From Planctomycetota bacterium (GTDB lineage Bacteria > Planctomycetota > J058), in NCBI GenBank assembly GCA_019636275.1, contig JAHBXY010000002.1, positions 56,213-120,212 on the forward strand: a stretch of DNA of 64,000 nt, read 5' to 3'. Of the stretch, positions 10,311 through 63,835 are shown in pieces; position 1 is the stretch's first letter, and each line of letters opens with the position of its first letter. Under the pieces are notes generated by a model, which ran no database searches, was not told the origin of the DNA, and saw only the letters and a list, made by a program, of their open reading frames with translations. Made by a program: the position numbers and the translations under genes.

Positions 10311-10322
10311 GGCGGCGGTGGT

Positions 10323-11228: not shown

Positions 11229-11435
11229 CTACTTCTTCTCGTCGTTGATCGGGCAGCAGCAGGGCGAGATCTCCTCGCCCGTGAGCGGGCAGATGATCGT
11301 GTCCGTCTGCTGCGCCGACGTCGTGGGCGCGACCGCGGCCACGGGCTCGGTCGAGACCGGCCGGGTCGCCGCGTAGATCGCAGGTCCGCCCGCAGCGGCC
11401 GCCACAGTGAGAGCAACCAGCACCTTCGTCATCAT
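11229..11435 (-). CDS. small secreted Cys-rich peptide (signal peptide; ICPLTGEEISPCCCP), putative metal-binding/chaperone-like
   Basis: AAGGAGG RBS; ATGA overlap with the upstream MerR gene; 68 aa. Confidence 0.5.
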   Translation of the reverse strand: MMTKVLVALTVAAAAGGPAIYAATRPVSTEPVAAVAPTTSAQQTDTIICPLTGEEISPCCCPINDEKK

Positions 11436-11900: not shown

Positions 11901-13680
11901 TACCTAGTTCCTGGCCGAGCACCAGGAAGTCCGCTTCGCAGGCTGGAGTCCTGGCGCCAGGTCGCGCCCATCTGGCCCATCCAAAAACCAAACATCGGAG
12001 GTAGAGGAGCGGCTCGCCGTCGGCGGCGAGGTGTATGGAGAGGTTTGGAACGACAACCCCAAGCCCCACACACCGAGGCGAGCCATGCGACGAACGATAC
12101 CGAAGCAGCGCCGACTGTTCACCCCCCTTGTCGAGGACGCGCTCTCCGAGGAGCTGGTAGAGATCGACGAGCTGATCCGTCTTCACCCCGAGTGGGAGGA
12201 GTGGATCCTGGAGGACCTCACGAACAGGAGGCGCGGCCGTGCGCGGCGCGGGCGTGAGGGCATGGGGCCCGATCTGGTGCTGCGGCTCCAGTTCCTCAAG
12301 CATCGGCTCGACGTCTCGCTCCGGAAGCTGTCGAAGATCGTCAATGACTCCGTCGGCTTTCGCGAGTTCCTGGGCCTCGGGGTCGAGGACCGTGCGCCGA
12401 AGCGCTCGACGATGCAGGACAACCTGGCGAAGGTCCGGCCCGAGACGTGGGGGAAGATCCTCCACTCTCATGTCCAGTCGCAGGAGCTGCGCGAGTTCGA
12501 GTCCGGTGACAAGCAGCGCGTCGACGCGACGGTCGTGAAGGCCAACATCCACCCTCCCTCCGACTCGTCGTTGCTCTGGGACGGCGTGCGGACGTTGACC
12601 AGGCTCATGAGCCAGGCGCGCCAGCTCTTCCCCGAGGTCGAGTTCGAGGACCGCAGCAAGCAGGCGAAGCGGCTTCAGTCGAAGATCTACTGGGCCCGCC
12701 GAAAGGAGCAGCGCCGCCCCGCATACGAGGCTCTGTTGAAGGAGGTGCGCTTCGTCGACACCCAGGCCGAGCGCGTGATCACGTCGCTGGAGACCGTCCG
12801 GACTCGCTCGGTGCAGGACGGCGTTCTCCGCGACGCGTTGGCCTCGGAGCTCCGTCGGTACCGCGGCCTCACCGCTCGCGTGATCGACCAGACCGAGCGG
12901 CGGGTCGTGCGGGGCGAGACGGTGCCACCCGGCGAGAAGCTGTACTCGATCTTCGAGCCTGAGACGGACATGATCGTCAAGACGAAGAACCGGCCGCCGG
13001 AGTTCGGGCACAAGGTCACGTTCACCATGGGCGTGCACTTCGTCCTCGACTGCGTCGTCGAGCGTGGGAACCCGGCGGACGTGACCCTCGCCGTGCGCCA
13101 GGTCGAGCGCCAGACGGCGCTCCGCGGGAAGGCTCCCGAGCAGGTGGCCTTCGACGGGGGCTACGCGTCAGCGGCGAACCTGGAAGCGATCAAGGCGCTT
13201 GGCGCCGAGCGCTGCGCGTTCAGCAAGGGCCGCGGCCTCACGCCCGTCGACATGGCAGGTAGCCGACGAACGTTCGGCCGTCTGCGCAACTTCCGCGCAG
13301 GCATCGAGGGAAAGATCTCCTGGTTGAAGCGCGACTTCGGTCTCGGCCGGTGCACATGGAAGAGCTGGCCTCGGTTCAGCTCGTACGTGTGGTCGGCTTG
13401 CTTCGCCGCGAACCTGAGCAAGCTCGCTCGGTTGAGGCTGAGCGCGACGGCAGCGCCAGCCAAGCGCGCCGCGTAGCCCATCGTCGCAGATCCGCCTCGC
13501 AGGCCCCCTTCCTGGGAGAGAGTGCGTACTCGTAGCCGCGACAACGAACGGAAGCGCCTCGAATACGGCTCAGCAGGCCGAGGAACTGTCTGCGAGCGCG
13601 CCGGCACACTCCAGCGGCCGGGTGGTCGCCGGCCTGGAGGCCGCGCCCCAGGCCGATTTCGGCCAGGAACTACCTAGGTA
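11901..13680 (+). mobile_element. IS element (IS5/IS1182-like), ~1.78 kb, imperfect terminal inverted repeats tacctag(gta)ttcctggccga
   Basis: IRL 11901-11918 and IRR 13659-13680 are reverse complements; single DDE transposase ORF; left end sits 20 bp upstream of the MerR start codon. Confidence 0.65.
12031..13476 (+). CDS. DDE transposase (IS5/IS1182-like family)
   Basis: Motifs AFDGGYASAANLE, FGRLRNFRAGIEGKISWLKRDFGL; the antisense ORF 11878..13038 is rejected. Confidence 0.7.
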   Translation: MYGEVWNDNPKPHTPRRAMRRTIPKQRRLFTPLVEDALSEELVEIDELIRLHPEWEEWILEDLTNRRRGRARRGREGMGPDLVLRLQFLKHRLDVSLRKLSKIVNDSVGFREFLGLGVEDRAPKRSTMQDNLAKVRPETWGKILHSHVQSQELREFESGDKQRVDATVVKANIHPPSDSSLLWDGVRTLTRLMSQARQLFPEVEFEDRSKQAKRLQSKIYWARRKEQRRPAYEALLKEVRFVDTQAERVITSLETVRTRSVQDGVLRDALASELRRYRGLTARVIDQTERRVVRGETVPPGEKLYSIFEPETDMIVKTKNRPPEFGHKVTFTMGVHFVLDCVVERGNPADVTLAVRQVERQTALRGKAPEQVAFDGGYASAANLEAIKALGAERCAFSKGRGLTPVDMAGSRRTFGRLRNFRAGIEGKISWLKRDFGLGRCTWKSWPRFSSYVWSACFAANLSKLARLRLSATAAPAKRAA

Positions 13681-22153: not shown

Positions 22154-22591
22154 TCAATGGTGATGGTGCTTCCAGCGCGTGTCCGTGTGCTCGCCCACGT
22201 GCTGTCGCTCGAGCGCCCGGAGCTCGGCTTCGTCGAGCAGCTCCGGCAACGCTCGCTCGATGTCGACATGGGAGCCGTCGGCACAGAGCTCGAACGCAGC
22301 GATATGAACGGCGCGCCCGTCGGCGAGCCGGCGCTCGATCGCCGACAGGATGATCGGGCGCTCGATCCCATGCTCCTTGGCCGTGCTCTTGATCGCTGCG
22401 CGCGTGGCGATGATCGTCGATGTCGTCGGGGCCACGCCGAGCGTCGAAGCTGCGGCCTCCTCCACGGCGCTCTTCAGGCGCAGGGACCTGACGATGCTGC
22501 AGCCCTTCGCCACGATAGCCAGGACGATCAAGGCGATCATGGCGAGCATGCCGGCCAACAGAAGGGTGCCGCGCCCTCGGCGCTTCTTCAC
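22154..22591 (-). CDS. membrane-anchored hypothetical protein with C-terminal HHHH tail
   Basis: GTG start overlapping ATPase stop (GTGA); N-terminal TM helix LLLAGMLAMIALIVLAIV; ends WKHHHH. Confidence 0.5.
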   Translation of the reverse strand: MKKRRGRGTLLLAGMLAMIALIVLAIVAKGCSIVRSLRLKSAVEEAAASTLGVAPTTSTIIATRAAIKSTAKEHGIERPIILSAIERRLADGRAVHIAAFELCADGSHVDIERALPELLDEAELRALERQHVGEHTDTRWKHHHH

Positions 22592-24786
22592 CGCGCCGAC
22601 TCCTGATCAGTGCCCCCGCCGAGGAGGCGGAGCCCGTTGAGGATGACGAGGAGCGATGCGCCCATGTCCGCCCCGATGGCCGCCCAGAGCGAGGCGTGAC
22701 CCGCGAACGTGAGCACGACGAACACGGCCTTCACCGCCAGCGAGAAGAACACGTTCTGCCGGATCACGCGGAGCGTGCGACGCGAGTGGAGGACGAGCCA
22801 GGGGAGCTTGCCCAGATCGTCCGACATGAGGGCCACGTCCGCGGTCTCGATCGCCGCGTCGCTGCCGGCGGCACCCATGGCGATCCCGAGAGAGGCGCGC
22901 GCGAGCGCGGGTGCGTCGTTCACGCCGTCGCCGATCATGGCGACGCGACCATGCTTCGCGACCAAGGCGTCGATCACTCGCACCTTGTCGCTCGGCAGCA
23001 GCTCGGCGTGGACCTCGTCGATTCCAGCCTCGGCCGCGATCGCCTTCGCGGTCCCGGCGTTGTCGCCCGTGAGCATGGCGATGTGCTTTACGCCCGCGGC
23101 GCGGAGCGCCTTCAGGGTCCCTGCCACGCCGGGCCGGACGGTGTCCGCGAGGGTGATCACGCCGCAGACGTGAGCCTCGTCGCCGACCAGGACGACGCTC
23201 TGCCCGGCGGTCGAGCGCGCGGCGAGCAGCGCCTGCACGTCGGCTGTCTCCTGACCCCGCTCCTGTAGATAGCGATGGGATCCGAGCCAGAACACGCGGC
23301 CGTCGATCCGGGCGGTGACGCCCTTGCCCTGCACCGTCTGCACGTCGTCCGCGGGCCTGACCGTGACGCCGCGCTCCTGGACGTGCTTCACGATCGCGCG
23401 CGCGAGCGGGTGCTCGCTCCGGGCCTCGATCGCGCCGGCGAGCTCGAGCAGCTCGCGCTCGGTGTGACCGTTCATGGGAGTGACCTCGGTCACGCGCGGC
23501 TTGCCCTCGGTGATGGTCCCGGTCTTGTCGAGCGCGAGCGCCACCAGGGTGGCGGGCGTCTCGACGTGAGCGCCGCCCTTCACGAGGACGCCGTTGCGAG
23601 CGGCGGCCGCGATCGAGGCGACGACGCTCACGGGCGTCGAGATCACGAGCGCGCACGGGCAGCCGATCACGAGCAGGACGAGCGAACGGTAGATCCAGTC
23701 CGACCAGGGCAGCCCGAACGCGAGCGGTGGCACGAGGAGCAGGCCGAGAGCGAGCGCCAGGATCGCTGGCGTGTAGTAGCGCGCGAAGGTCTCGACCCAG
23801 CGCTCCGACGGCGCGCGGCCTGCCTGCGCCTCTCCGACCATCTTGATGATGTGCGCGAGCGTCGTGTCGCCCGCGAGCTTCGTGCTCTCGACCTCGAGCG
23901 CGCCGTCCCCGTTGATCGTGCCGGCGAAGACGGTCTCACCCGGGGCCTTCGACACGGGCATGCTCTCGCCGGTGATCGGCGACTGATCGAGCGTGCTCGA
24001 GCCCCGCACCACCGTCCCGTCGAGGGCCACTCGCTCACCGGGCTTCACGACGAACCTCGCGCCGACGGGGACGCCCTCGGCGGCCACCTCGGCTTCGGTC
24101 CCGTCCTTCAGCAGGTGCACGGTGGGCGGTGCGAGGGCCATGAGCGCTCGCACGGCCCGCCGGGCTCGATCCACGCTCCATGACTCGAGGAGCAGCGAGA
24201 GCGAGAACAGGAACGCCACGACGGCGCCCTCGAACCACTCACCGATCGCGAGCGCGCCGGCGACCGCGACGGTCATGAGCAGGTTCATGTCGGGGCTGAG
24301 GCGGCGCGCAGCCAGCCAGGCCTTCGGCAGGAATGGCCAGGCGCCGAGGATCACGCTGACGAGGTACGCGGCTCGTGCTGGTAGGGGGACAGCGTCGGCC
24401 ACCCCCATGCCCTCCGAGCCGAGGGCCGCGAAGAAGTCCCCTGCGAGCAGGGCGTGAACCGTCAGACCGAGCGCCGCGGCCACACCGCTGCCCGCGGTCG
24501 TCGCTGCGCGGCCGTGCCGTGACCACCAGGTTCCCGGGTCGGGGACCGTGGACACGTCACCGACCGGGGTGGCCTTCATGCCCGTTGCAGCGATCGCGGC
24601 GACGACGGTGGCTGCAGACGCCGGCGACCCCTCGGGCAAGCGCACGGTCAGGCGCCTGCCGAGGAGGTCGAACCCGAGCCGGTCCTCGCCAGGACCGACG
24701 AGGGGCGTGAGCTCGCGCCGGAGGATGCTGATCTCCTCCGAGCAGTCCATGCCTTCGATGTGGAACTGCAGGTCGCGCGAGCTCAT
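22588..24786 (-). CDS. P1B-type heavy-metal-translocating ATPase (CPC motif; ZntA/CadA/CopA-like) with degenerate N-terminal HMA domain
   Basis: GMDCSEE N-terminal domain, TM CPC (IGCPCALV), DKTGT phosphorylation motif, GDGVNDAPAL hinge. Confidence 0.85.
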   Translation of the reverse strand: MSSRDLQFHIEGMDCSEEISILRRELTPLVGPGEDRLGFDLLGRRLTVRLPEGSPASAATVVAAIAATGMKATPVGDVSTVPDPGTWWSRHGRAATTAGSGVAAALGLTVHALLAGDFFAALGSEGMGVADAVPLPARAAYLVSVILGAWPFLPKAWLAARRLSPDMNLLMTVAVAGALAIGEWFEGAVVAFLFSLSLLLESWSVDRARRAVRALMALAPPTVHLLKDGTEAEVAAEGVPVGARFVVKPGERVALDGTVVRGSSTLDQSPITGESMPVSKAPGETVFAGTINGDGALEVESTKLAGDTTLAHIIKMVGEAQAGRAPSERWVETFARYYTPAILALALGLLLVPPLAFGLPWSDWIYRSLVLLVIGCPCALVISTPVSVVASIAAAARNGVLVKGGAHVETPATLVALALDKTGTITEGKPRVTEVTPMNGHTERELLELAGAIEARSEHPLARAIVKHVQERGVTVRPADDVQTVQGKGVTARIDGRVFWLGSHRYLQERGQETADVQALLAARSTAGQSVVLVGDEAHVCGVITLADTVRPGVAGTLKALRAAGVKHIAMLTGDNAGTAKAIAAEAGIDEVHAELLPSDKVRVIDALVAKHGRVAMIGDGVNDAPALARASLGIAMGAAGSDAAIETADVALMSDDLGKLPWLVLHSRRTLRVIRQNVFFSLAVKAVFVVLTFAGHASLWAAIGADMGASLLVILNGLRLLGGGTDQESAR

Positions 24787-52611: not shown

Positions 52612-52716
52612 CATGCGCGCGCCGCGCTGGCCGACCTCCTGCGCGGCCGCTACCTGCCCGGCGCCGCGGTCGCGCGGGGCGAGGTCCTCGCCCTGGCGCG
52701 GGTGGGGCTCACCTGA
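52612..52716. repeat. direct repeat copy 2 of the methyltransferase 3' end (...LRGRYLPGAAVARGEVLALARVGLT*)
   Basis: See 47653-47802. Confidence 0.7.
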
Positions 52717-55456
52717 CGACGCGGAAGCCGACGTCGTCCGCCCGCGCCTCGGGCGGCAGCCACGACCGGTGGGCCGAGCGCGCCCACGTCGCGTCCCAGG
52801 CGAAGCAGCCGCCGCGCAGCACGCGGCACACCCCGTAGGCCGGCCCGACCGGCGCCTCGGCGGGGCCCTCCTCGTAGGGGCCGTACCAGTCCTGCACCCA
52901 CTCCCAGGCGTTGCCGTGCACGTCGTGGAGGCCCCAGGCGTTGGCGGGCTTGAGCCCCGCCGCGCGGACGCGCCCGCCCGAGTTGTCGCGGAACCAGCCG
53001 ACGCGGTCGAGGTCGTGCACCGCGTCGCCGCTCCAGTAGGCGGTCGCGGTGCCGGCGCGGGCCATGTACTCCCACTCGGCCTCGGTCGGCAGCCGGACGG
53101 GCCGCGCGCCGCCGGCCCGCGAGAGCCAGCGGCAGAACGCGACGGCCCCGTACCAGCTCACGTCGATCGCGGGCTGCGTCGCCCACTCGGCCGGGTCGAC
53201 GCCGGCGGGCGGGCGGTGCGAGGGGGCGAACGCGGCGTACTGGCGGTTGGTCACCTGCGTCGCGCCCGCCTCCCACGCGGCCGGGAAGCTCACGCGGCGG
53301 CGGGGCTGCTCCCAGGGGAAGCCCTGCTCGTCGGGCCGCCCGCCCATGACGAACTCGCCGGCGGGGATCGGCCGCCAGTCGACGAGGTCGCGCGGCGGCG
53401 CGGCGAGGCGGTCGTAGAGCGCCCCGGCGGCGTCCGGCGCGCCGTGGCTGCGGCGCAGGAGCTCGTCGAGGAAGAACAGGTCCTCGGGCACCTCGGTGCC
53501 CCGGGCCAGGGCCGCGTCCCACAGCTCGAGGGCCAGCGCGCGGGCCTGGGCGGGGCTCAGGAGCCGGGCCGTCTGCAGGTAGACCGCGCCGCGGAGCGGG
53601 CCGCGGAAGCACGGGAGCTGCCGGGCGAGCGCGTCGAGGGCCGCGTCGACCTCCAGCCCGTCGACGTGCGCGCGGCCGAGGGCGGTCGTGAGCTCGGCGA
53701 GGCCGGCGCGCCCGGCCGCGTCGTCGCCGATCCACCCGCCGACGCGGTACTCGACCGCCTTCACGAGCCCGACGCGGGCGGAGTCGCCGACGACCGACCA
53801 CCAGTTGCGCATGCCCTCGATGAACGTGCGGGCGCGGGGGCGCTCGTCCTCGAGCGGCCGCGCGGCGGCGACGAGCGCGCGGAGCGTCGCCGGCTCGACG
53901 CGCCGCGCGCACTCGAGCCCGCGGACGGCGAGCTCGGGGTCCGCCTCGGCCAGCGCGAGCAGGAGCGCGTCGGGGCGCGCGAGCTCGCCGCAGAGGAGGA
54001 CGAACGGCTCGGCCCACTGCGAGCGCTCCCCGCCCCGGCGCAGGCCGCGCGCCGCGTCCAGCAGGGCGGCCTCGCCCTGCTCCCGCGCCTGCCGGGCGAG
54101 GCGCCGGGCGGCGAGCAGCTCCTGCAGGCTGCGGTGCCAGAACCGCCACGGGGTGCCCCGCCCGTCGGGCTGGCCGAGGATCGCCGTGCGGTCGGCGAGC
54201 TCGGTCAGGAACTCCTCGGGCCCGGCGGCCCAGCGCGAGACGCGCTCGAGGCGCTGCCAGAGCGGCGGCTCGTCGCGGAGTCGCCGCGCGACGGCGGCCA
54301 GCGGCTCCGCCACGACGCCCTCGCCGGTGAAGGCGTGCGCGACCAGCTCCAGGGCCTCCTCGGCGGCGACCAGGTCGGTCATGCGCGGCGCGGCCTCGGT
54401 CCGGTGGAGCCCCTCGAGGAGCAGCTCGAGGACCTGCGTGTAGAGCTCGTGGCGGGTCCGCGGCGGCGCCGCGCCGCCCCCGGTCGTCGGATGCGGGCGG
54501 TGCTCGCCGAGGAGGGCCGCGAAGGTCAGGAGCAGGGGGGTGCGCCGCAGCTCCGGCGCGTCGAGCAGGCCTTCGGGCAAGGCCGACGTGGCCTCTGTCC
54601 GCCCCAGGCGGCGGAGGAAGTCGGCCACCTGCGCGTCGCTCAGCGGGTTGAGCGTGGCGATCTCGAAGCCGCCGGGGCAGCGCAGGCCCTGCGGCCGGCT
54701 GGTGACGACGATCGGAGAGGGCCACGCTGCCGCCGCGACCTTCAGCAGGCTGCGCACCTGCTCGCGCTTGACCGGCAGCACCTCGTCGAGGCCGTCGAGG
54801 AGCAGCACCAGGCCGCCCTGAGCCGCCAGCTCGACCAGCGCCGGGGCGTGGGCGCCCTTCGAGGCCAGGAGCGACTCCGGGAGGTCCGGCCGGAAGGGCT
54901 CCAGGGCCAGCTCGGCCAGCCGGACGACGACCGGGTGGTGCTCGGCGAGCTCGTCGCAGGCGAGGTCGTGGGCCAGGGCGTGGACGAGCGTCGTCTTGCC
55001 GGAGCCGACGTCGCCCACGACCAGCCAGCGCCCGGGGCCGTCGTCGCGCGAGCTCCAGAGGAGGCTCCTGGGGCGCTCCGCGGCGCGGGTCGGCGAGAGC
55101 GCCAGCGTCCGCTCGATCGCGTGGTCGCGCAGGGGCAGGGCGCGCGAGAGCGTCATGCCGGTCAGGAGGTTGGCGTTGCCGCTGTCCGCCGCGACGGCGG
55201 CGCGGAGGCGCTCCAGGTCCGACAGGGGCTCGCCGAGGGGCGCGGGGGTGTCCGCGAGCTGGAGCTGAGCGATCGACCGGGCGAGCGCCTTCGCCACGCT
55301 CCCGAGCGACCCCCGGCGCACGCGCTCGCCGCGCTCGATCCGGCGCAGCGTCTGGACGTCCACGAAGGCCTTGTCCGCCAGGCCCTCCTGGCTCCAACCC
55401 TTTGCTTCGCGAAGGGTTCGGACGAGCCCGCCGTTGGCACGTACCTCTCGCCGCAT
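52709..55456 (-). CDS. STAND NTPase: N-terminal XRE-type HTH, NACHT ATPase, helical region, C-terminal FGE-sulfatase (SUMF1/formylglycine-generating-enzyme-like) domain
   Basis: HTH LRTLREAKGWSQEGLADKAFVDVQTLRRIERG; Walker A VVGDVGSGKTT; Walker B VLLLDGLDEV; C-terminal ...WYGAVAFCRWLS...RLPTEAEWEYMARAG...GLHDVHGNAWEW...RVLRGGCF (FGE-sulfatase fold). The ATG of MRREV is read ~1 nt from the computed in-frame codon at 55456. Confidence 0.7.
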   Translation of the reverse strand: MRREVRANGGLVRTLREAKGWSQEGLADKAFVDVQTLRRIERGERVRRGSLGSVAKALARSIAQLQLADTPAPLGEPLSDLERLRAAVAADSGNANLLTGMTLSRALPLRDHAIERTLALSPTRAAERPRSLLWSSRDDGPGRWLVVGDVGSGKTTLVHALAHDLACDELAEHHPVVVRLAELALEPFRPDLPESLLASKGAHAPALVELAAQGGLVLLLDGLDEVLPVKREQVRSLLKVAAAAWPSPIVVTSRPQGLRCPGGFEIATLNPLSDAQVADFLRRLGRTEATSALPEGLLDAPELRRTPLLLTFAALLGEHRPHPTTGGGAAPPRTRHELYTQVLELLLEGLHRTEAAPRMTDLVAAEEALELVAHAFTGEGVVAEPLAAVARRLRDEPPLWQRLERVSRWAAGPEEFLTELADRTAILGQPDGRGTPWRFWHRSLQELLAARRLARQAREQGEAALLDAARGLRRGGERSQWAEPFVLLCGELARPDALLLALAEADPELAVRGLECARRVEPATLRALVAAARPLEDERPRARTFIEGMRNWWSVVGDSARVGLVKAVEYRVGGWIGDDAAGRAGLAELTTALGRAHVDGLEVDAALDALARQLPCFRGPLRGAVYLQTARLLSPAQARALALELWDAALARGTEVPEDLFFLDELLRRSHGAPDAAGALYDRLAAPPRDLVDWRPIPAGEFVMGGRPDEQGFPWEQPRRRVSFPAAWEAGATQVTNRQYAAFAPSHRPPAGVDPAEWATQPAIDVSWYGAVAFCRWLSRAGGARPVRLPTEAEWEYMARAGTATAYWSGDAVHDLDRVGWFRDNSGGRVRAAGLKPANAWGLHDVHGNAWEWVQDWYGPYEEGPAEAPVGPAYGVCRVLRGGCFAWDATWARSAHRSWLPPEARADDVGFRVVR

Positions 55457-55530
55457 CCTGCCTACGTGACCCTCGATCGGATTGTAGCGGAGCTGCCCCA
55501 ACCCTCGCCACGTCCAGTAAATACGCACCG

Positions 55531-55560
55531 TAGTTCCCGGTCTAGTTCCCTGTAGTTCCC
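55531..55560. promoter_or_regulatory. three tandem copies of TAGTTCCC (spacings 12 and 10 bp) upstream of the HTH-NACHT gene, candidate operator
   Basis: ccgTAGTTCCCggtcTAGTTCCCtgTAGTTCCCtatg, seen directly. Confidence 0.35.
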
Positions 55561-55758
55561 TATGTGCGCCCTTCCTTCGAGGTGGTCCCCGAGACACCCT
55601 GGGCCCGGGACCTGTGCGATCCACGCGGTCGGTTGGCTGGCGGTCGGGGGAACGACCGCCAGCCGGGCACAGGGGGGAGAAGGGCGGATGGTGCGCCGCA
55701 GTCGCCGGAGCACCGAGCGCCGAGGTCCATGCGAGCGACAACCGGAGGCGAGCCTCAG

Positions 55759-55911
55759 ATGAACCCGCCCGTGGACCTCGGCGCCCTGCTGGTGGTCCTG
55801 GAGTACGCTCAGGCGGTCCAGGACAGTGTGGCCGTGCAGCTCGAGTCGACGCTCGGCGAGCAGGCCCGGAGCCTGCTCGTCCAGCTGGAGCTGACGGCGT
55901 CGTTGAACTGA
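55759..55911 (+). CDS. small ORF (50 aa, predicted helical: MNPPVDLGALLVVLEYAQAVQDSVAVQLESTLGEQARSLLVQLELTASLN)
   Basis: GGAGG RBS 8 nt upstream of ATG; between the NACHT gene and the azoreductase. Weak. Confidence 0.25.
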   Translation: MNPPVDLGALLVVLEYAQAVQDSVAVQLESTLGEQARSLLVQLELTASLN

Positions 55912-56078
55912 CGACGCGTCCCCGAGCCGACCCCCGCGCCGACCGGCCGGCGTGCCGCCGACCGGCCGGCGCGGACGGCGGCCGGACGGTCCGCCGGCGT
56001 CGGGAGTTAGCTCGCGGTCTGCTTCATGCAACGGGACGGGTCGTGCAGCGACGGTCGCTCGCTGCGGAAGGACCCGTC

Positions 56079-56702
56079 ATGAAGCTCCTGCACGTCGACT
56101 CCAGCATCCTCGGCGCGGACTCCGCCTCGCGTCGGCTCACGCAGGCGGTCGTCGACCGCTTCGCGCGTGCCGACCCCGGGCTCGAGGTCGTCCGCCGCGA
56201 CCTGGCCGCCGAGCCCCTGGCCCACCTGTCCGGCGCGCTCCTGGCGGCCGCGCGCGGCGGCGCGACCGAGGTCGACGAGGCGGTCGCCCGCGACCTCGCC
56301 CGCGACCGTCAGGCGCTGGCCGAGTTCCTCGCCGCCGACGTCGTGGTGATCGGCGCGCCCATGTACAACTTCACCGTCCCCACGCAGCTCAAGGCCTGGC
56401 TCGACCGCCTGGCGGTGGCCGGGACGACGTTCAAGTACACGGCCGAGGGCGCGGTTGGCCTCGTGCGCGGCAAGCGCGTGGTCGTGGTCTCGACGCGCGG
56501 CGGCGTCTACGCCGAGGGCGGGCCCGACTTCCAGGAGCCCTACCTGCGCGCCTTCTTCGCCTTCCTGGGCGTCACCGACCTCGAGGTCGTCCGCGCCGAG
56601 GGCCTGGCCCTGGGGCCCGCGCCGCGGCAGCGCGCGCTCGACGAGGCGGCCGCGCGGGTCGCGGCGCTGGCCACCGACGCGGCGGGAGCGGTCGCCGCGT
56701 AG
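56079..56702 (+). CDS. azoR: FMN-dependent NADH-azoreductase (AzoR/AcpD-like flavodoxin-fold protein)
   Basis: MKLLHVDSSILGADSASRRLTQAVV...IGAPMYNFTVPTQLKAWLDR; GAAGGA RBS. Confidence 0.7.
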   Translation: MKLLHVDSSILGADSASRRLTQAVVDRFARADPGLEVVRRDLAAEPLAHLSGALLAAARGGATEVDEAVARDLARDRQALAEFLAADVVVIGAPMYNFTVPTQLKAWLDRLAVAGTTFKYTAEGAVGLVRGKRVVVVSTRGGVYAEGGPDFQEPYLRAFFAFLGVTDLEVVRAEGLALGPAPRQRALDEAAARVAALATDAAGAVAA

Positions 56703-56708
56703 CGTCGG

Positions 56709-57368
56709 TCAGTTGAACTCCGACGCCGCGAGGAGCGGAGCGCCGGCGTGACACGCCTCGCACGCGGGCGGGAGGACCGCCCGCCAGCGCGCCGACACGA
56801 GCCAGGTCATGGGCAGGGCGCGCGCCGCGAGCATGGCCTTGGCGGCGTCGGGCTCCACGAGCCCGAACAGGTAGACCCCGATCACCTGGCAGCCGGCAGC
56901 CTCCGCGAGCGCGAGGAGGCGCTCCAGCGAGGCGGCAGTGGTGGCGACGTCGTTGACGACGACCACCGGCCGTCCTGGCGTCAGCCGCCCGGCCCGCAGC
57001 GGGAGGCCGAGCGGGCGCCGCCGGAGGTCGATCCGCGCCGTCGCGAGGCTCGCGCGGAGCTCGACGGCCACGGCGTGGCCCAGCGCGAAGCCGGCCGACT
57101 CGGGCGAGAGGACCGTGAGCTCGAGGCCGAGCGGAGGGTGCGAGGCGCCGAGCAGCCAGCGCGCGACCTGCTCGACGGCGGCGCGGTCGCGGCCGATCTG
57201 CGCGAAGCGGAGGAAGTACGGGGCATGGTGCCCGCTCTGGAGGGCGAAGTGACCCTGGAGGAGGGCGCCGGTCGCGGCCACGACGTCCAGCAGCGCCGCG
57301 GCCGGCACCCCGTTGGGTTCGACCGTGAGCCGCTCGGCCAGCTCCTCGCGATCGACGACGAAGCTCAC
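56709..57368 (-). CDS. type I phosphoribosyltransferase (PRTase) domain protein
   Basis: PRPP-binding motif VVVVNDVATTAAS; GTG start overlapping stop of the upstream wHTH gene (GTGA). Confidence 0.55.
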   Translation of the reverse strand: MSFVVDREELAERLTVEPNGVPAAALLDVVAATGALLQGHFALQSGHHAPYFLRFAQIGRDRAAVEQVARWLLGASHPPLGLELTVLSPESAGFALGHAVAVELRASLATARIDLRRRPLGLPLRAGRLTPGRPVVVVNDVATTAASLERLLALAEAAGCQVIGVYLFGLVEPDAAKAMLAARALPMTWLVSARWRAVLPPACEACHAGAPLLAASEFN

Positions 57369-58477
57369 GCGTCCACCGTGACGAGCTCGAGCTCCGCCAC
57401 GGGCGCGGCGTCGGCCGAGGCGAGGCAGGCGCGCCGGCTGGCCGCCTGCAGCGCGCCCCGGCGCTGGTCGCGCAGGAAGAGCATCAGGTTGTCGTAGAGG
57501 ACGAGCGCGCCGTCCGTCGGGATCCGCGTCGCCAGCTCGGCGTCCTGGTCGTCGAGGGTCCGCGCGTCGAGCCCGAGATGAAGCCGGAGGGACGCGTCCC
57601 ACTTGTCCCGGAGGCGCGAGGTGCGGACGAACAGCTTCGTCCCGGCGGGGGCCAGGCGCTTGATCTTGTCGAAGAGCGCCGGCAGCCCGGCGCCAGGCGC
57701 GTCGTCGCCGAGCCCGCGCTCGACGAGCGCCTCGAGCTCGCTGGCGAGGCGGTGCTGGGCCGTGATCTCGGTCGCCCAGAAGACCCCGGCCTCGGTCTGA
57801 CGCGCGAGGCCACGGTCGGCCGCCAGCTCCATCACGGAGTCGATCACGTCGTCGCTCGATCGCTCGCCGAGCGCCGCTGCGCACATGCGGCGAAGCTCGC
57901 GCGAGGAGACGCGCCGGGCCACCGCCAGCTCGACCACCATGTCGAGGACGAAGCCGATCAGCCCACGATCCGGCGGCCGGCCGGGCGCCTGCGCGAGGCG
58001 CTCGACGAGCCGCCGGCCGGGCGGCGTGAGCCGGTACCACCTCGACCGGCCGTCGGCGTCGGGATCGCGGTCGACCTCGTGGATCCAGCCGTTGCGGACG
58101 AAGGCCCCGAGCGCGCGGGAGACGACGGCGCGGTCGCGTCCGGTCAACTCCGCGAGCTCCGTGTTCCGCCGGGGAGCCGTGTCGAGGGCCTGGAGGAGCT
58201 CGGGCCAGCCGGAGCGCGCCTGCACGGCCCGGACGGCTGCGGCCAGGTCCTCCTCGGACTCATGGGCGAGGAGGAACCCGGCGAGCAGGTCGTCGAGCGC
58301 CGCGCGGTAGCCGGCCGAGTAGTCGTCCCCGTCGCCCAGGCTGGCGATCCCGGCCCTGACCGCGGCAAGCTCCGCGGCAGAACCCTTCGCGAGCTCGCGG
58401 CCGAGCTGCTGCCCGACGCTCTGGAGGGCGGCGCGCGCGCCCGAGCGCAGGCGCTCGAGGAGACGAACGAGCTTCAT
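57365..58477 (-). CDS. winged-HTH (MarR/PadR-like) domain protein with large uncharacterised N- and C-terminal regions
   Basis: LAELTGRDRAVVSRALGAFVRNGWIHEV; translationally coupled to the PRTase. Confidence 0.45.
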   Translation of the reverse strand: MKLVRLLERLRSGARAALQSVGQQLGRELAKGSAAELAAVRAGIASLGDGDDYSAGYRAALDDLLAGFLLAHESEEDLAAAVRAVQARSGWPELLQALDTAPRRNTELAELTGRDRAVVSRALGAFVRNGWIHEVDRDPDADGRSRWYRLTPPGRRLVERLAQAPGRPPDRGLIGFVLDMVVELAVARRVSSRELRRMCAAALGERSSDDVIDSVMELAADRGLARQTEAGVFWATEITAQHRLASELEALVERGLGDDAPGAGLPALFDKIKRLAPAGTKLFVRTSRLRDKWDASLRLHLGLDARTLDDQDAELATRIPTDGALVLYDNLMLFLRDQRRGALQAASRRACLASADAAPVAELELVTVDA

Positions 58478-58548
58478 GGCGCTGCTCCCCCTTTGATGAT
58501 GCCTCCATGACGGGGGTCGTCCAGACCTCCGTCAAGCATACGGCAATG

Positions 58549-58578
58549 ACATTTATCACGAAGTCAATCATTTGTCAA
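58549..58578 (-). promoter_or_regulatory. sigma70-like promoter on the minus strand: TTGACA-18 nt-TAAATG, ~70 nt upstream of the wHTH/PRTase operon
   Basis: Reverse complement of 58549-58578 reads ttgacaaatgattgacttcgtgataaatg, in an AT-richer intergenic patch. Confidence 0.4.
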
Positions 58579-59928
58579 CTATGGGTGCCTGACGTCCACG
58601 ATCGGATCTCCCAGGGTGACCAGGGTCAGGGAGCTGCCCTGCTGAGGGTCCAGCGTGAACGCCCGCGGCCCCGTGGTGCTCGTCCGTACCGGCCGGGCCA
58701 CGATCGCCGTCGAGGCCCCGGCGGCGCGAAGGCCGTTGGCGACGAGAGTGGTCGCCTGGCAGTCGAGAACGAGCTGCTCCGCGCGGACGCAGAACTCGCC
58801 GGTGCGATCGGTCAGGGCCGGGACGAGCACGAGGGTGGCGCGGAGCGCGGTCGCGAGCGCCGTGGCCTCCGCATCCAGAAAGTCCTTACACACCAGCAGC
58901 AGGACCGAGGAGCGACCGCTCACCAGGAGCCGGAGCCGCTTCTTTGGCCAGATGTCCTCGTGCCGGTCGAGGCCTCCTGCCTCTCGGATCACGTAAGGGG
59001 CGTACTTCCGGTGCTCGTGCCGCCCTCCGGTGGTCAGCAGGGTCGTGACGTTCTCCCCAGGCTGATCGCGGTCTGATCTGGGGACGTGGCGGCTGCCCGC
59101 GACGACGCCGAACGGGGCCTCTCCGGGTCGTAGCCAGCCCTCCAGGGTGGCGAGCAGGGCGTCGTCCACGAGCAGCTCGGGGAGGACGACGAGGTGCGCG
59201 CGGCTCTCTCGCGCACGCTCCAGGAGCTCCAGGATCTCGGCGCGCACGCGCTCCCGGTCGGTGGGCCGCACGTCGTAGAAGAGGGGCTGGTCACCGCGCT
59301 CGTAGGAGTCCTTGTCCAGGTTGCCAGGTGCCAGGGGCGCGGGGCACGCGGCTCCGAGCCGGAGGTCCGGGCGTAGCGCCACGGGCGCGAGCGCGCCGTC
59401 GAGCCCCCACGAGAGCGTCACCTCGACTCCCCGTAGGTCGTCGGGCGCCAGGGTGAACCGCAAGGTCCGGTCCGTCGGTGGCGTCGTCGTCTCAGGGTTC
59501 GTCGTGAGGCGCACGTCGTCCCCGAAGGTCGTCCGGTCTGGCGGCCGGATCGGGACGAGCGCCCGGGGCGTGACCGCGAGCTCAGGGCCGTGTAGCCGCT
59601 GGAGCTGCTGCGTGATCGCGTCGGCGTGCTCCGCCGAGAGGTGCCCGGCGAGGAGCCATGCGACGACGACCTCCGGCAGGGCGTCTACAAGAGCCGCGTC
59701 GACGGCCGCACGGAGCTCGTCGAGCTCCTCGGCGAAGAGCTCGTCGTCGTCGAGCGCGCGGACGCACGAGCGGAGCGCGACGTCGTGCGCGTGGAGCATC
59801 CGCGCATTCTCGGGCGCGACGAGCGCGACTCGGAGCGCGCCCGCGCCGTCCCGGCACTCGGCGAGGAGGCCCGCGAGGAGGGTCGACATGGCGAGTGGCG
59901 GCGGACCGGCGAGCAGGTTCGAGACCAT
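58579..59928 (-). CDS. carbon-nitrogen hydrolase (nitrilase superfamily)-like protein with N-terminal extension
   Basis: Putative E-K-C triad context: HLVVLPE, HEHRKYAPY, LLLVCKDF. Confidence 0.45.
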   Translation of the reverse strand: MVSNLLAGPPPLAMSTLLAGLLAECRDGAGALRVALVAPENARMLHAHDVALRSCVRALDDDELFAEELDELRAAVDAALVDALPEVVVAWLLAGHLSAEHADAITQQLQRLHGPELAVTPRALVPIRPPDRTTFGDDVRLTTNPETTTPPTDRTLRFTLAPDDLRGVEVTLSWGLDGALAPVALRPDLRLGAACPAPLAPGNLDKDSYERGDQPLFYDVRPTDRERVRAEILELLERARESRAHLVVLPELLVDDALLATLEGWLRPGEAPFGVVAGSRHVPRSDRDQPGENVTTLLTTGGRHEHRKYAPYVIREAGGLDRHEDIWPKKRLRLLVSGRSSVLLLVCKDFLDAEATALATALRATLVLVPALTDRTGEFCVRAEQLVLDCQATTLVANGLRAAGASTAIVARPVRTSTTGPRAFTLDPQQGSSLTLVTLGDPIVDVRHP

Positions 59929-60431
59929 CGCGAGCCTCCCCGGCGGCGATCCATCACTCTATGTCGCCCTGGTCACCAGGCGCAAACACTCACAGCGGCC
60001 GTCGCTTGTTCTGATGTCCACGTTTGGGCGCGCGGCTCGATGCTCCGATCCGCAGTGAGGCACCTGTCGCCCTCGCTCCGGCCGCTGCGCGGCCTCCGCT
60101 CGGGGATGCGCGCCACCGCTCGATCTGCTCGCTTCGCTCTCAGGTCAAGCGGCGAGCGCGGTCACTGTCCCGGCGAGCCCTCGATCACGGCGGCGCTACA
60201 AGTCGGAGGGCTTCCGCCGGCGACCTGAACTCGGCTCAACCGGACGGCGCTGCCGGCGGGCGACGAGCGTGGTGCTCAGCGCCGAGCCAGGCGCTTTGCA
60301 GCCCGGTCGACAGCCTCGCGCGTCACGGTGTCGTCTGCGAGACGGGCGTTCCCGTAGGCGAAAGAACGCCGTGCGTGGTCGGCCAGACGCCCACTGCTCT
60401 GGCTGACGGGGTCGCAACCAGCCCCTGCAGC

Positions 60432-61709
60432 CTACGCCCCCCCGAAGACCGCCGTGACGATCGCCCGGCGCAGCCCTTCGGCCGCGCGGCCGGACACGTA
60501 GGCCTCGGTCACCTGCTCGAGGTCGACCTCGAGCCCGACGACGCGGCCTGGGCGGCCGGCGCGGGGGCGGCCGACGAGGTCGTGCGTCGCGCGCAGCCGG
60601 ACGCCGGCGCCCGGGACGAGCGCGGGGAAGAGGAAGGCGTTTCCGACGGCGTCGAGCGGCGGGCCCTGCGGGTCGACGAGGTCCGAGTGGAGGAGGCGGT
60701 AGAGGACCTGCTTGCCCAGGTCCGGGGTGCCGGGCAGCGCCCCTGCGTCGTAGTCCTTGGCGTCGAGCACCAGGAGGACCGCGCGGCCGTCGGGCAGGCG
60801 GTCGCGGACGACGACGTCCGGCCGGAGGTTCAGGCCCGGGAGGAGCGAGCCGTCCGGGAGGCGATAGGTGCCGCGCAGGCCGGCGCCGCGCCCCTCGTCG
60901 CGGAGGGCGACCTGGAGCATGCGCTCCCACACGTGCGCGTAGCTGCGGGCGAAGAGGCCGCGGACCTCGGCCCCGCGCTCCGAGGCCTCGCGCGCGGCGT
61001 GGTAGCGGCGCAGGAGAGCCAGGAGCCGGCGCGGGCGGTCGGCGAAGCACACGCGCTCGCCGCGCTCGATCCGGTCGAGCGCCTCGGTGGGCGGGATCGG
61101 CGGGCGCTCGCCGGCGCCGCCCAGGCCGAAGCGCGCGCCGATCTGCTCGCACGTGGCCTCGTGCAGGTCGGTGAGCTCGTGGCGCGGGTCCGGGCGCACG
61201 GAGCGTCGCGGCAGGGCCCGGAAGACGACCCCGGTGCGCCCCTGGACCGGCGCGCCGTCGCGGAGCGCCTGCGGCCAGAGCACCCGGCCCGGGACCTGGT
61301 CGTGGACCCGGGGGGCGCTGACGAGCAGCGGGCCGCGCTCGACGAAGTCGCGCCAGAGGAGGAGGGCCGCCTCGACCTGGTCGACGAGGTCGCCCGGGTC
61401 GCCGACCGCGACGAGCGCGCCTTCGCGCGTGGCCAGCGCCGGGTCGTCGACGGCGCGGCCGCCCGGACGCTCGCGCGCGTAGCGGGCGAGGCTGGAGACG
61501 AACAGGGCCACGCGCTCCAGGGCAGCGCCGGGGTCGAGCGGCGCGCCCGCGTAGCAGCGGGGCAGGACGACGACGAGCCGCCCGCCGACGCTGGCGAGCC
61601 CCGGCAGGAGCGAGGGCGCGCCGTCCGCGGTGGACCACGCCTCCGGCGGCAGGCCGGCGGCAGGGTCGAGCGGCTGGCCCGCGACCAGGAGCCGGACCGG
61701 CGCGGTCAC
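60432..61709 (-). CDS. mcrC: McrC-like restriction endonuclease subunit (PD-(D/E)xK)
   Basis: RPDVVVRDRLPDGRAVLLVLDAKDY (PD...DAK nuclease motif); GTG start overlaps McrB stop (GTGA). Confidence 0.6.
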   Translation of the reverse strand: MTAPVRLLVAGQPLDPAAGLPPEAWSTADGAPSLLPGLASVGGRLVVVLPRCYAGAPLDPGAALERVALFVSSLARYARERPGGRAVDDPALATREGALVAVGDPGDLVDQVEAALLLWRDFVERGPLLVSAPRVHDQVPGRVLWPQALRDGAPVQGRTGVVFRALPRRSVRPDPRHELTDLHEATCEQIGARFGLGGAGERPPIPPTEALDRIERGERVCFADRPRRLLALLRRYHAAREASERGAEVRGLFARSYAHVWERMLQVALRDEGRGAGLRGTYRLPDGSLLPGLNLRPDVVVRDRLPDGRAVLLVLDAKDYDAGALPGTPDLGKQVLYRLLHSDLVDPQGPPLDAVGNAFLFPALVPGAGVRLRATHDLVGRPRAGRPGRVVGLEVDLEQVTEAYVSGRAAEGLRRAIVTAVFGGA

Positions 61710-63835
61710 CCGGCCGGGCCGTCAGGCGGCTCGTCGCCGGCGTCGTGGCGCCCGAGGGCCGCGAGGACGTCGCCCTGGAAGACGTGCCGCCCCTGGTCGT
61801 AGCGGGCGAGGAGCGCCTCGTAGGTGACGACGTCACCGCGGAAGACTCGCGCCGGGCGGTCCCGGAAGACGGTCGCCCACAGGTAGAAGAGCACCTTCGA
61901 CTTGAACTCGACCGCGTCGACGAGGACCTCGCCCACGGGCGGGCGAATGAACCAGGGGCCCATCTGCTTGTCGTCCGAGCGGGCGTGGTCGACGATCGCG
62001 CGGTTGAGCGTCTGCATGAGCGTCATCCACGACACGCCGGTCTCGTCGGCTGCGTGGAGGCGGACGCGGGCGTTGGGCTGCCGCGGGGTGTCGACCCCCA
62101 TGTAGGACATGCCCCAGCGCCGCCGGAAGGCGGTGTCCATGGGGAACAGGCTCTGGTCCGACGTGTTCATCGTCGCGTAGAGGTAGAGGTTGCCCGGGAG
62201 GCGGAGCTGCCGCGTGGCCTGGTCGAACACGGGCGAGCCGGTCACCTCCCGCTCGAGCCACGCCGCCCACTCGGCCGAGGGCACGATCCCGTACTGGCTC
62301 CAGCCCTCGTGCTCGCGCGCCTTCGCGTCGCCGGCCCGGTCGAGGAGCTGGAACACGTCGCCGAAGATCGCCGCGCAGTTGCCCCGGTTGATCTCCTCGA
62401 TCACCAGCACGACCGGCGCAGCCGGCGAACGCGCCGCGAGCGCGAGCGCCTGGCTGAACGGGCCCGGCTCGAAGCGGTAGTAGGTGCGCGGCTCGCGGTC
62501 GCGCTCGACGCCGTCGGCGTCGACGAACGTCGCCGTGGTCCGCAGCCAGCCCACCGCCGGGCGGTAGCTGCCGACGAAGTCGAAGTAGCTGTACTCCGGG
62601 TGGAAGGTCACCCGCTTGACGTGCTCCGGCCGCGCGTCGAGGTGCTTGGTGACGATCTCCTGCACCTGGTAGCTCTTCCCCGTGCCGGGCGGGCCGAAGA
62701 AGATCACGTTGCGGTGCCGCGCCCAGACGCTCTCCTCGACCTCTTCCGGCCCTTCCTCCTCTTCGACGGCGTCCGTGACGTCGAGCACCTCGTCGCCCTC
62801 GAGGCCGTCCGTGAGGCCGTGCAGGAGGTGCCCGAACTGGTTCAGGGGCAGCGTGTCGACCCCGCGCTCGCGGAGCGCGCCGGCGACCGTGTCGCGCTCC
62901 TCGGGGATCAGCAGGGCGGCGACCTCGGGGGCGCTCGGGTCGACATGGAAGAAGCTGTAGACGTTCAGAGACGTGGTCCGGCGCTCCGGGCTCTCGACGG
63001 GGATGCAGAGGCCACTCCCGTACTGGTTGAGCGAGACCGTCTTGTTGACGCTCGAGCGGAGCGCCTCCGCGCTCCAGCGCCAGTGCTTCCGGTGGGCTTC
63101 GTGAAGCAGTCCATCGGCGTAATCGGCCGGGATCTGCTCCAGCCTGTCGACCATGCTCTGCGTGACGCGGACACGGATCTCGTCGCCCACGAGGAGTCCG
63201 TCGATCCGACGGTCACGCTGCCCCTTCCAGTAGAGCGGGAGGACGACCTCCCGCCCCGCGCGCTCGGCACGTTCCTGGAGGATCGCCCACAGGTGGGCGC
63301 GCCAGGCGTTTCCGCCCGGCTCGACCGCCCGCTCCCGCCGGAAGCTGGCGAACTCGCGGACGAAGCGCGCGATCGAACCGACGAGCTCGGGCGCGCCGAT
63401 CTCGCCCAGCAACGCGACCGGGCGGCCGTCGACCTCGACGACCTCGCCCTTCCAGGCCTGGAGGAACTGCCGCCACTGCTCCTGGCCGCTGAGCCCGCCG
63501 ACGCGCCCGAGGTGGACCTTGCCGTCGGGGCCGCGGAGGAACAGGCCGCTGAACTGGCGCGAGCGTCCTTGCCGAGGGGTGTTCACCTCGACCGCGCAGC
63601 GATCGTTCTCCTGGGGGTCGCCGATCCCGAGGAGGCAGCAGTAGCGGTCCTCGCGCCCCTCGTCGAAGGCGGCCCAGAACTCCTCGCGCTCGAGGACGTG
63701 GACGGGGAGGTTCGCCTTGCGGCCGCTGGCGCGGACGATCGGCAACGTCCCCGCTGGCCGACCGGCCGTGCTGCACTGCTTCTCGAGCGCCTGGAAGCTG
63801 TCGCGGAGCTCCGCCGCCGACTCGACGACCTTCAC
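61706..63835 (-). CDS. mcrB: McrB-like AAA+ GTPase restriction subunit with a ~370-aa non-canonical N-terminal (DNA-recognition) region
   Basis: Walker A VIFFGPPGTGKS; McrB signatures LVIEEINRGN and LYLYATMNTSDQS. Confidence 0.75.
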   Translation of the reverse strand: MKVVESAAELRDSFQALEKQCSTAGRPAGTLPIVRASGRKANLPVHVLEREEFWAAFDEGREDRYCCLLGIGDPQENDRCAVEVNTPRQGRSRQFSGLFLRGPDGKVHLGRVGGLSGQEQWRQFLQAWKGEVVEVDGRPVALLGEIGAPELVGSIARFVREFASFRRERAVEPGGNAWRAHLWAILQERAERAGREVVLPLYWKGQRDRRIDGLLVGDEIRVRVTQSMVDRLEQIPADYADGLLHEAHRKHWRWSAEALRSSVNKTVSLNQYGSGLCIPVESPERRTTSLNVYSFFHVDPSAPEVAALLIPEERDTVAGALRERGVDTLPLNQFGHLLHGLTDGLEGDEVLDVTDAVEEEEGPEEVEESVWARHRNVIFFGPPGTGKSYQVQEIVTKHLDARPEHVKRVTFHPEYSYFDFVGSYRPAVGWLRTTATFVDADGVERDREPRTYYRFEPGPFSQALALAARSPAAPVVLVIEEINRGNCAAIFGDVFQLLDRAGDAKAREHEGWSQYGIVPSAEWAAWLEREVTGSPVFDQATRQLRLPGNLYLYATMNTSDQSLFPMDTAFRRRWGMSYMGVDTPRQPNARVRLHAADETGVSWMTLMQTLNRAIVDHARSDDKQMGPWFIRPPVGEVLVDAVEFKSKVLFYLWATVFRDRPARVFRGDVVTYEALLARYDQGRHVFQGDVLAALGRHDAGDEPPDGPAG

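Follow-up and report, generated by a model that had tools for sequence, protein, structure and literature searches.

Organization of the locus

The 64,000-nucleotide stretch of DNA analysed in this study (hereafter the window; contig JAHBXY010000002.1 of a Planctomycetota bacterium) harbours on its minus strand a cassette of three genes, which encode a nitrilase-type protein (NIT), a protein of the winged helix-turn-helix (wHTH) type and a phosphoribosyltransferase (PRTase). All three open reading frames (ORFs) proposed by a first-pass annotation of the window are present, as is the GTGA overlap which it reported between the wHTH and PRTase genes, where the GTG start codon of the latter (57368) lies on the TGA stop codon of the former (57365-57367); these two genes are translationally coupled. 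The McrBC and NACHT neighbours that it named were likewise recovered by family searches, in the form of McrB-like, McrC/LlaJI-like and NACHT-FGE-sulfatase genes. The NIT gene is separated from the McrC-like gene by a gap of 503 nt and from the wHTH gene by a spacer of 101 nt. The features of the cassette are as follows (aa, amino acids; PRPP, phosphoribosyl pyrophosphate):

58579-59928, minus strand: NIT protein, gene 1, 449 aa
59293-59928, minus strand: NIT N-terminal domain, aa 1-212, delimited by conservation in the family alignment
58582-59292, minus strand: predicted nitrilase-superfamily domain of NIT, approximately aa 213-449, from profile matches and the catalytic tetrad
59176-59178, 59005-59007, 58957-58959 and 58888-58890, minus strand: predicted NIT catalytic codons Glu251, Lys308, Glu324 and Cys347, respectively
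58478-58578, minus strand: AT-richer spacer between the NIT and wHTH genes, 101 nt
57365-58477, minus strand: wHTH protein, gene 2, 370 aa
56709-57368, minus strand: PRTase, gene 3, 219 aa, PF00156
56928-56966, minus strand: PRPP loop of the PRTase, V135-S147, including Asn139-Asp140

Conservation and distribution of the cassette

The three genes constitute one conserved cassette with a fixed order. Word-indexed homologue searches gave 1, 5 and 3 matches, and the wHTH family was seen only when 1.84 billion representative proteins were scanned in full with HMMER; its relatives there fell into 97 clusters, approximately 60 of them full length. Related loci were collected by genomic look-ups of seven diverse members, by a scan of one genome per GTDB species with a four-sequence PRTase alignment (17 loci) and by a metagenome scan (6 loci), and the gene order was checked with our own family profiles on six-frame ORFs. 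At every related locus with enough sequence, approximately 30 in all (the window, L001/2, L007-9, the contigs of P0010 and P0017, L012-L020, L022-L029 and L031-L038), the three genes share one strand and follow each other as nitrilase, wHTH and PRTase, at identities to the window proteins of 26-32% for the nitrilase, approximately 25-37% for the wHTH protein and 37-48% for the PRTase. Overlaps or very short gaps between the wHTH and PRTase genes occur in other loci too. The first-pass annotation had treated the wHTH and PRTase genes as a pair whose co-occurrence was to be checked; the pair is kept in every locus with enough sequence, and the nitrilase gene is also part of the unit.

All organism-named loci (the 17 loci of the genome scan, P0012 and P0035) are assigned to Myxococcota or to the older label delta-proteobacteria, the named hosts being Kofleriaceae, Myxococcales, Polyangiales and Myxococcus guangdongensis. 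The metagenome-assembled genome (MAG) from which the window derives is labelled 'Planctomycetes bacterium', while all organism-named related cassettes come from Myxococcota, a discrepancy that could be due to mislabelling of the MAG, mis-binning or inter-phylum transfer.

Two further arrangements were noted among the related loci. In Kofleriaceae, a gene for a T2SSE-type (PilB/GspE-like) ATPase is located directly upstream of the NIT gene on the same strand (L020, 4202-5266, with a 4-nt overlap with NIT; L023, 3813-5333; also L019, L026 and L027); it is not found in the window and may represent a fourth, clade-specific component. L010 (705-4374 and 10235-10870) displays a looser two-family arrangement, in which a lipoprotein-type Metallophos/5'-nucleotidase gene shares its end with the gene for P0009, a NIT-family protein, the two overlapping there, and a short wHTH-family protein is encoded 5.8 kb from P0009, with no PRTase. 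The 5'-nucleotidase was considered as a swapped effector and was discounted on account of its lipoprotein-type signal sequence.

The nitrilase-type protein

A Pfam search with the full 449-aa NIT sequence alone gave no match. When a profile of the C-terminal half, built from 17 sequences, was compared with PDB, the glutaminase (CN-hydrolase) domain of NadE (5kha) was the best match (E 4e-7 over 140 residues), 30 of the 31 matches were nitrilase-superfamily proteins, and the nitrilase domain of DRT1 (9yfd) was found at E 8e-4; a smaller profile of 7 sequences gave E 0.037. Four residues, Glu251 (VLPEL), Lys308 (HRKY), Glu324 and Cys347 (VCKDF), are invariant in 21 of 21 NIT homologues and occur in the canonical order and PE / hxK / CxD motif context of the nitrilase tetrad. 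The motifs of E251, K308 and C347 align to their counterparts in the glutaminase domain of NadE, and those of the Glu and the Cys also to an aliphatic amidase; E324 was assigned as the second Glu because it is invariant and lies between K308 and C347, and not from an alignment. Weak matches of the nitrilase N-terminal motif include carbamoylases and beta-ureidopropionase, and weak matches to CARF_nitrilase and RT_UG5-nitrilase were obtained with PADLOC. The catalytic residues coupled with the significant profile similarity indicate that NIT is a divergent nitrilase-superfamily enzyme, which gives substance to the description of a CN-hydrolase-like protein in the first-pass annotation.

The N-terminal domain (aa 1-212) is conserved across the family and its first half is helical, and no relative of it was found when its profile was searched against PDB and Pfam. 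A faint match to NNH3, seen for only 1 of 12 members, was treated as chance. The public annotation of the NIT gene (KF878_01340, P0007) specifies a protein of 406 aa. As residues 5-33 of the longer form are conserved among homologues (L22 in 20/21 and R26 in 21/21), the 449-aa start is favoured, and the deposited start is probably 43 codons short.

The winged helix-turn-helix protein

The wHTH protein matches Pfam HTH_IclR with 25.9 bits (gathering cut-off 22) over residues 93-133, and a winged helix of the MarR/ArsR type, complete with recognition helix and beta-hairpin wing, spans aa 91-163 (57989-58207). In the structural model this is preceded by a predicted N-terminal helical domain (aa 1-87) and followed by what appears to be a second winged-helix-like unit (aa 171-234), a long helix (aa 236-255) and a putative C-terminal alpha/beta domain (aa 267-367; 57377-57679). 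None of the parts outside the first winged helix was assignable to a known family, and a profile of the C-terminal half found no relative in PDB or Pfam. Matches in PADLOC were marginal only (MkoB, the wHTH region of PRTase_III-A and DrmC; E 1e-3 to 7e-3). Pfam PF24409, the 'wHTH-PRTase associated' family, was matched weakly by just 5 of 49 members of the wHTH family, which is therefore not that family.

The phosphoribosyltransferase

With 28.9 bits against Pfam Pribosyltran (PF00156; cut-off 26.3), the third protein belongs to the type I PRTases. Its top model in NCBIfam is pyrE_Therm (TIGR01367), with 55.9 bits as compared to an equivalog cut-off of 150; TIGR00336 gives 37 bits (cut-off 106.8), and the nearest solved structure is an orotate phosphoribosyltransferase (OPRTase), 4paw. 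The PRPP loop reads VVVVNDVATTAAS. In all 23 PRTases compared, the PRPP motif (VNDVxTT) has an Asn where its first acidic residue would be, the second acidic residue and T143 being retained in 23/23 and T144 in 21/23. Also invariant in 23/23 are H40, H48, E90, D114, R117, N139, D140, W195, C203, C206, E217 and N219. From this set a signature emerges which is not found in true PyrE, comprising the Asn in the PRPP loop, H48, W195, the C-x2-C motif and the C-terminal E-F-N. Judging from residue conservation, H40, H48, C203 and C206 could constitute a metal site, and the C-terminal Glu-Phe-Asn tail could act as a regulatory or interaction peptide. The alignments of the two enzymes point to purifying selection at the active sites of both.

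The identity of the PRTase as a housekeeping PyrE was rejected, since its scores lie far below both cut-offs and its gene always stands in nitrilase-wHTH context; a true PyrE relative, P0006, resides in a cox/pdxJ housekeeping context without the cassette partners. The first-pass annotation had weighed an uncharacterised module against a purine-salvage regulator pair, the latter hinging on orthology of the PRTase to a housekeeping enzyme in conserved metabolic context. The former is the better supported, as the best PyrE model is matched with 55.9 of the required 150 bits and no metabolic context is conserved across the cassette loci.

The spacer and its conserved cis element

The spacer between the NIT and wHTH genes (58478-58578) has a G+C content of 52.5%, as compared to 73.5% for the cassette, and contains TTGACA (58573-58578) directly 3' of the NIT stop codon and TAAATG (58550-58555), with 17 nt between them. 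The two hexamers and the AT-richer patch had been noted in the first-pass annotation as a clear promoter with a spacing of 18 nt; the elements are there, while the spacing is 17 nt and the match to consensus only partial. A scan for consensus promoters and terminators called no site, as the -10 hexamer lacks the final T. A ribosome-binding site, GGGGGAG, is found ahead of the ATG of the wHTH gene.

Overlying the TTGACA hexamer is a direct repeat, TTGACAAATGATTGAC (58563-58578, site 1), with two TTGAC boxes 11 bp apart; a second, degenerate copy, TTGCCGTATGCTTGAC, is located at 58531-58546 (site 2). Exact TTGAC-N6-TTGAC occurs once in the 64-kb window (0.00 copies expected) and six times in the 32 fetched loci, every one of these in the NIT-wHTH spacer, and there is no copy upstream of the NIT gene. 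When mismatches were allowed, 8 lineages with protein identities of 25-40% had the element, at a distance of 75-103 nt upstream of the wHTH start, and a degenerate second copy followed 24-34 nt downstream of the first in 5 of these 8, the window included. What is conserved in the main Kofleriaceae clade is a different element, GTTGACGGTAACGTAAA, in which there is one TTGAC box. The conservation and position of the repeat suggest that the spacer represents a promoter with an embedded operator, to which the double winged-helix protein may bind. No Rfam match was obtained for 55500-61000, a repeat scan of 55.5-61 kb produced nothing meaningful, and no retron-like RNA was detected there.

A variant operon with a patatin in place of the PRTase

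At L013 a paralogous operon (1111-7770, minus strand) is located divergently from the canonical cassette. Its genes, in order, are:

gene 1: two-nitrilase-domain protein, 674 aa
gene 2: NIT-family protein, 439 aa (E 1e-59)
gene 3: short wHTH-family protein, N-terminal helical and winged-helix part only, 250 aa (E 3e-22)
gene 4: 142-aa protein
gene 5: patatin-like phospholipase, 669 aa

The first domain of the two-domain paralogue passes Pfam CN_hydrolase (24.9 as compared to 23.2 bits), and the NIT profile matches this protein as well. As the pairing of NIT and wHTH is kept and the third enzyme is changed from a PRTase to a patatin, an effector type well known from conflict systems, this operon hints that the third position of the cassette is an effector slot, and it is the strongest single hint to that effect.

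Genomic context and mobility

The cassette was found in at least 10 unrelated flanking contexts, and its base composition deviates from that of the flanks in several genomes:

L014 (M. guangdongensis): cassette G+C 0.55, flank G+C 0.69
L016: cassette G+C 0.59-0.64, flank G+C 0.71
L015: cassette G+C 0.65, flank G+C 0.75

The L014 cassette occupies positions 8521-11829 of that locus and belongs to a cultured strain, M. guangdongensis K38C18041901 (GCA_024198255.1, JAJVKW010000012.1). The G+C content at third codon positions is likewise far below that of the flanking genes in several genomes, and a transposase adjoins the cassette in L013 and L031. Rarity, patchy contexts and composition are signs of transfer of the cassette.

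Defence or mobile genes are neighbours in the window and L002 (McrBC, a type I restriction-modification (RM) system and NACHT), L012 (NACHT), L013 (JAB-ThiF/E2, a DEAD-MZB helicase, an M78 peptidase and a patatin), L015 (JAB-ThiF, radical SAM and the RNA-repair genes RtcB/PNKP/Ro60), L018 (PD-(D/E)XK and HNH nucleases) and L031/L032. The defence-island context claimed in the first-pass annotation is hence borne out in the window and in L012, L013, L015, L018 and L031/L032, but not in the main Kofleriaceae clade, where the cassette is flanked by genes of ordinary regulation and housekeeping. PADLOC matches of flanking genes to RtcR, PD-T4-6 and mad were not accepted as defence genes, as these reflect generic sigma-54 AAA+, kinase and methyltransferase domains.

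The genes that flank the cassette in the window are:

61706-63835, minus strand: McrB-like AAA_5 protein, 709 aa
60432-61709, minus strand: McrC/LlaJI-like protein, 425 aa
56079-56702, plus strand: flavodoxin-like gene, convergent to the cassette, 207 aa
52709-55741, minus strand: HTH-NACHT-FGE-sulfatase gene, 1010 aa

The McrB-like protein carries approximately 360 N-terminal residues without a family match ahead of its AAA_5 domain, and these presumably form a new type of domain for recognising DNA. Two contexts that are otherwise unrelated have NACHT and FGE-sulfatase-domain genes at a distance of a few kb from the cassette, fused in the window, with an N-terminal HTH_3 domain (52709-55741), and adjacent in L012 (1964-5144); this recurrence could be due to chance, both domains being common in Myxococcota. 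Further away, positions 1-30053 of the window form a metal-efflux island, in which a P-type ATPase (22588-24786) and a DDE transposase (12085-13476) accompany three gene sets of the RND/HlyD/OEP (Czc/Cus-like) kind; heavy-metal-binding repeats occur in one of these sets. The G+C content is 68.7% over the left 41 kb of the window, as compared to 75.7% in 42-64 kb, and the window thus spans at least two compositionally different blocks; between 31000 and 39000 the G+C content falls to 0.60-0.65 and few ORFs look coding by host codon bias.

Possible function of the cassette

The explanation that we tentatively favour, at slightly less than an even chance of being correct, is that the cassette represents a horizontally mobile, autoregulated conflict module of the anti-phage or abortive-infection kind, with a logic similar to that of toxin-antitoxin systems. 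In such a module the double winged-helix protein would bind the TTGAC direct repeat, the boxes of which lie one helical turn apart, and thereby autoregulate the wHTH-PRTase pair, while its N- and C-terminal domains would, by an assumed physical interaction, restrain the PRTase, and possibly the nitrilase as well, up to the arrival of a cue, the likeliest being a phage factor. The freed PyrE-like PRTase might then consume PRPP or make an aberrant nucleotide, by analogy with Retron-Eco11, in which activation of the PRTase lowers PRPP (PMC12746101), and with ShosT, which together with PsyrT is presented as a PRTase toxin in a preprint that also reports that ShosT disturbs purine metabolism and is the only defence PRTase with a characterised function (bioRxiv 10.1101/2025.09.30.679545). 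The nitrilase-type enzyme might in turn attack an essential small molecule by hydrolysis of an amide or amine bond, by analogy with DRT1, which has a nitrilase effector whose substrate is not known (PMC13275509). The slot after the wHTH gene would be an exchangeable effector position, filled by the PRTase here and by a patatin in the paralogous cassette. A defence function of the cassette is what we infer from comparative genomics, from which the whole finding derives. That the cassette typifies an undescribed immune or abortive-infection family of Myxococcota which is independent of reverse transcriptase (RT), with a nitrilase and double winged-helix core and an exchangeable third enzyme, is possible, and we advance this with still more reserve.

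A number of observations weigh against a conflict module. None of the three proteins has a significant match in PADLOC, and the PRTase has no match at all there at E up to 0.1; neither the cassette nor its relatives were found in the viral contigs and plasmids searched. In Kofleriaceae, the largest clade, nine loci occupy one conserved chromosomal position, for which vertical inheritance of an ordinary operon is an equally good explanation, and next to the cassette are found a sigma-54/GAF activator, a metallo-beta-lactamase and the T2SSE-type ATPase, with no clear defence genes. Defence or mobile neighbours are absent from the Kofleriaceae synteny group, L014 and L029/L030. Regarding the proteins themselves, the nearest relatives of the PRTase are metabolic OPRTases, the Asn in place of the first acidic PRPP residue could mean that catalysis is altered or lost, MarR-type regulators beside enzymes are typical of catabolic operons, and an AlphaFold model of NIT from a three-sequence alignment reached a pLDDT (predicted local distance difference test) of 37.5 and was unusable, for which reason the nitrilase fold, an alpha-beta-beta-alpha sandwich, is argued from profiles and motifs.

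Several of these points would be expected of an operon that is specialised for small molecules and has a MarR-type regulator of its own, devoted to nucleobase or pyrimidine-like salvage, catabolism or secondary metabolism. In such an operon a nitrilase-type amidase or carbamoylase would make or consume a carboxylated base, the PRTase would couple the base to PRPP, and the C-terminal alpha/beta domain of the wHTH protein would sense a ligand. The kinship of the PRTase to OPRTases, the carbamoylases and beta-ureidopropionase among the weak nitrilase-motif matches, the MarR/ArsR-like regulator, the ordinary Kofleriaceae flanks with their conserved synteny and the absence of the cassette from the phages and plasmids searched all agree with this, and myxobacteria are rich in secondary metabolism. 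We nevertheless regard a metabolic operon, the foremost rival, as less likely, as no transporter or further pathway gene is co-conserved, the distribution is sporadic with low cassette G+C in several genomes, and RM, NACHT, transposase or nuclease genes are neighbours in several independent contexts. The patatin that takes the PRTase position in the paralogous cassette is hard to fit to a nucleobase pathway, and the regulator is translationally coupled to an enzyme and has approximately 290 residues beyond its first winged helix (aa 1-87 and 171-370).

The same Asn substitution, present in 23/23 PRTases, could instead mean binding without turnover, in which case the cassette would encode a split sensor similar to Firmicute PurR, with a non-catalytic PRTase-fold protein that would bind PRPP or (p)ppGpp and so tune the attachment to DNA of the wHTH protein, which in turn would control the nitrilase gene or other genes. 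There is precedent in Firmicute PurR itself, where a wHTH and an effector domain of PRT fold, the latter binding PRPP and ppGpp, are joined (PMC9304144), and the tight coupling of the wHTH and PRTase genes and the conserved operator-like repeat would suit such a sensor. It is, however, improbable, given that the flexible-loop and 5-phosphate-loop residues R117, D140 and T143 are invariant and T144 is kept in 21/23, as in active enzymes, that the fold is of PyrE lineage rather than of the HPRT/XPRT type of PurR, and that the putative operator lies ahead of the wHTH-PRTase pair and not of the nitrilase gene; the patatin paralogue, moreover, suggests an effector enzyme rather than a sensor in the third position. 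Finally, the 101-nt spacer with its own promoter-like element sets the nitrilase gene apart from the pair, and L010/L011 lacks a PRTase and has 5.8 kb between its nitrilase-family gene and its short wHTH-family gene, from which it might be argued that the three genes are chance neighbours, or that only the wHTH-PRTase pair is a unit to which the nitrilase gene is unrelated. This is scarcely credible, and on the evidence of the compared loci chance adjacency of the three genes is essentially excluded, as every locus with sufficient sequence has the nitrilase gene directly upstream and on the same strand, despite unrelated flanks and identities of 26-32%, and even the patatin variant retains nitrilase and wHTH together.

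Two kinds of domain have of late come to light as effectors in the immunity of bacteria, nitrilases (DRT1, UG5, CARF-nitrilase) and PRTases (type III retrons, ShosTA, PsyrTA, Ophion). In the cassette both enzyme types are stand-alone and small, with apparently intact active sites, and a strictly conserved operon unites them with a DNA-binding partner of their own. This makes it a compact system in which to ask what the substrates of the two enzymes are, whether they act sequentially on PRPP or the nucleotide pool and how a winged-helix protein controls them. The cassette adds a lineage-restricted candidate from Myxococcota, a phylum poorly covered by catalogues of defence systems. Should the immune reading be true, it would link two enigmatic types of defence effector, nitrilase and PRTase, in one pathway and provide a simple three-gene handle on the substrates of defence nitrilases; if the cassette is a metabolic operon instead, it would reveal a new specificity of a PyrE-derived PRTase.

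Comparison with known systems

The cassette combines known domain types in a new and apparently undescribed manner: no nitrilase-wHTH-PRTase system was found described in the literature consulted, although this paper set and PADLOC 2.0 are incomplete and an earlier description elsewhere is possible. The closest relative of its PRTase is the Thermus-type PyrE (TIGR01367; 4paw), with which it has in common the PRPP loop, a GHF..SG motif at the N terminus and, in the C-terminal region, the Cys-x2-Cys also present in 4paw; it differs by the Asn in the PRPP motif, the subfamily-specific H48, W195 and C-terminal E-F-N, and a gene that never occurs in a pyrimidine or housekeeping context. As in Firmicute PurR, a winged helix and a PRT fold belong to one regulatory unit, which in PurR reads PRPP and ppGpp (PMC9304144), but in the cassette these are two separate proteins, the PRT is of PyrE type with conserved catalytic residues, and a nitrilase partner is always present. 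A possible resemblance to type II toxin-antitoxin systems may be seen in the DNA-binding gene that precedes and overlaps the enzyme gene (GTGA) and in the conserved upstream repeat.

Among defence systems, DRT1/UG5 and CARF-nitrilase likewise have a nitrilase-superfamily domain with an intact tetrad as the presumed effector, whereas NIT is stand-alone, has neither RT nor CARF and carries a novel 212-aa N-terminal domain, so that the similarity is at superfamily level only. ShosTA and PsyrTA similarly place a PRTase-fold putative toxin beside a partner with nucleic-acid-binding domains; the cassette, by comparison, has three genes and a PRTase of another clade, and membership of these systems was rejected as there is no sequence match to the PADLOC models (0 families for the PRTase). 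Type III retrons, Retron-Eco11 among them, contain PRTase and wHTH effector proteins, either separate or fused (PMC7736814). Membership of the retrons was rejected on the grounds that the cassette has no RT, no non-coding RNA and a PRTase of another clade; neither the cassette nor those adjacent genes that were examined, both in the window and at the related loci, contained an RT domain. It is nonetheless these modules, with a PRTase-fold enzyme and a winged-helix partner in one operon, that the cassette most resembles, albeit with the gene order reversed (wHTH first), a PRTase of PyrE lineage that matches no PADLOC PRTase model and a nitrilase-family gene as an obligatory third partner.

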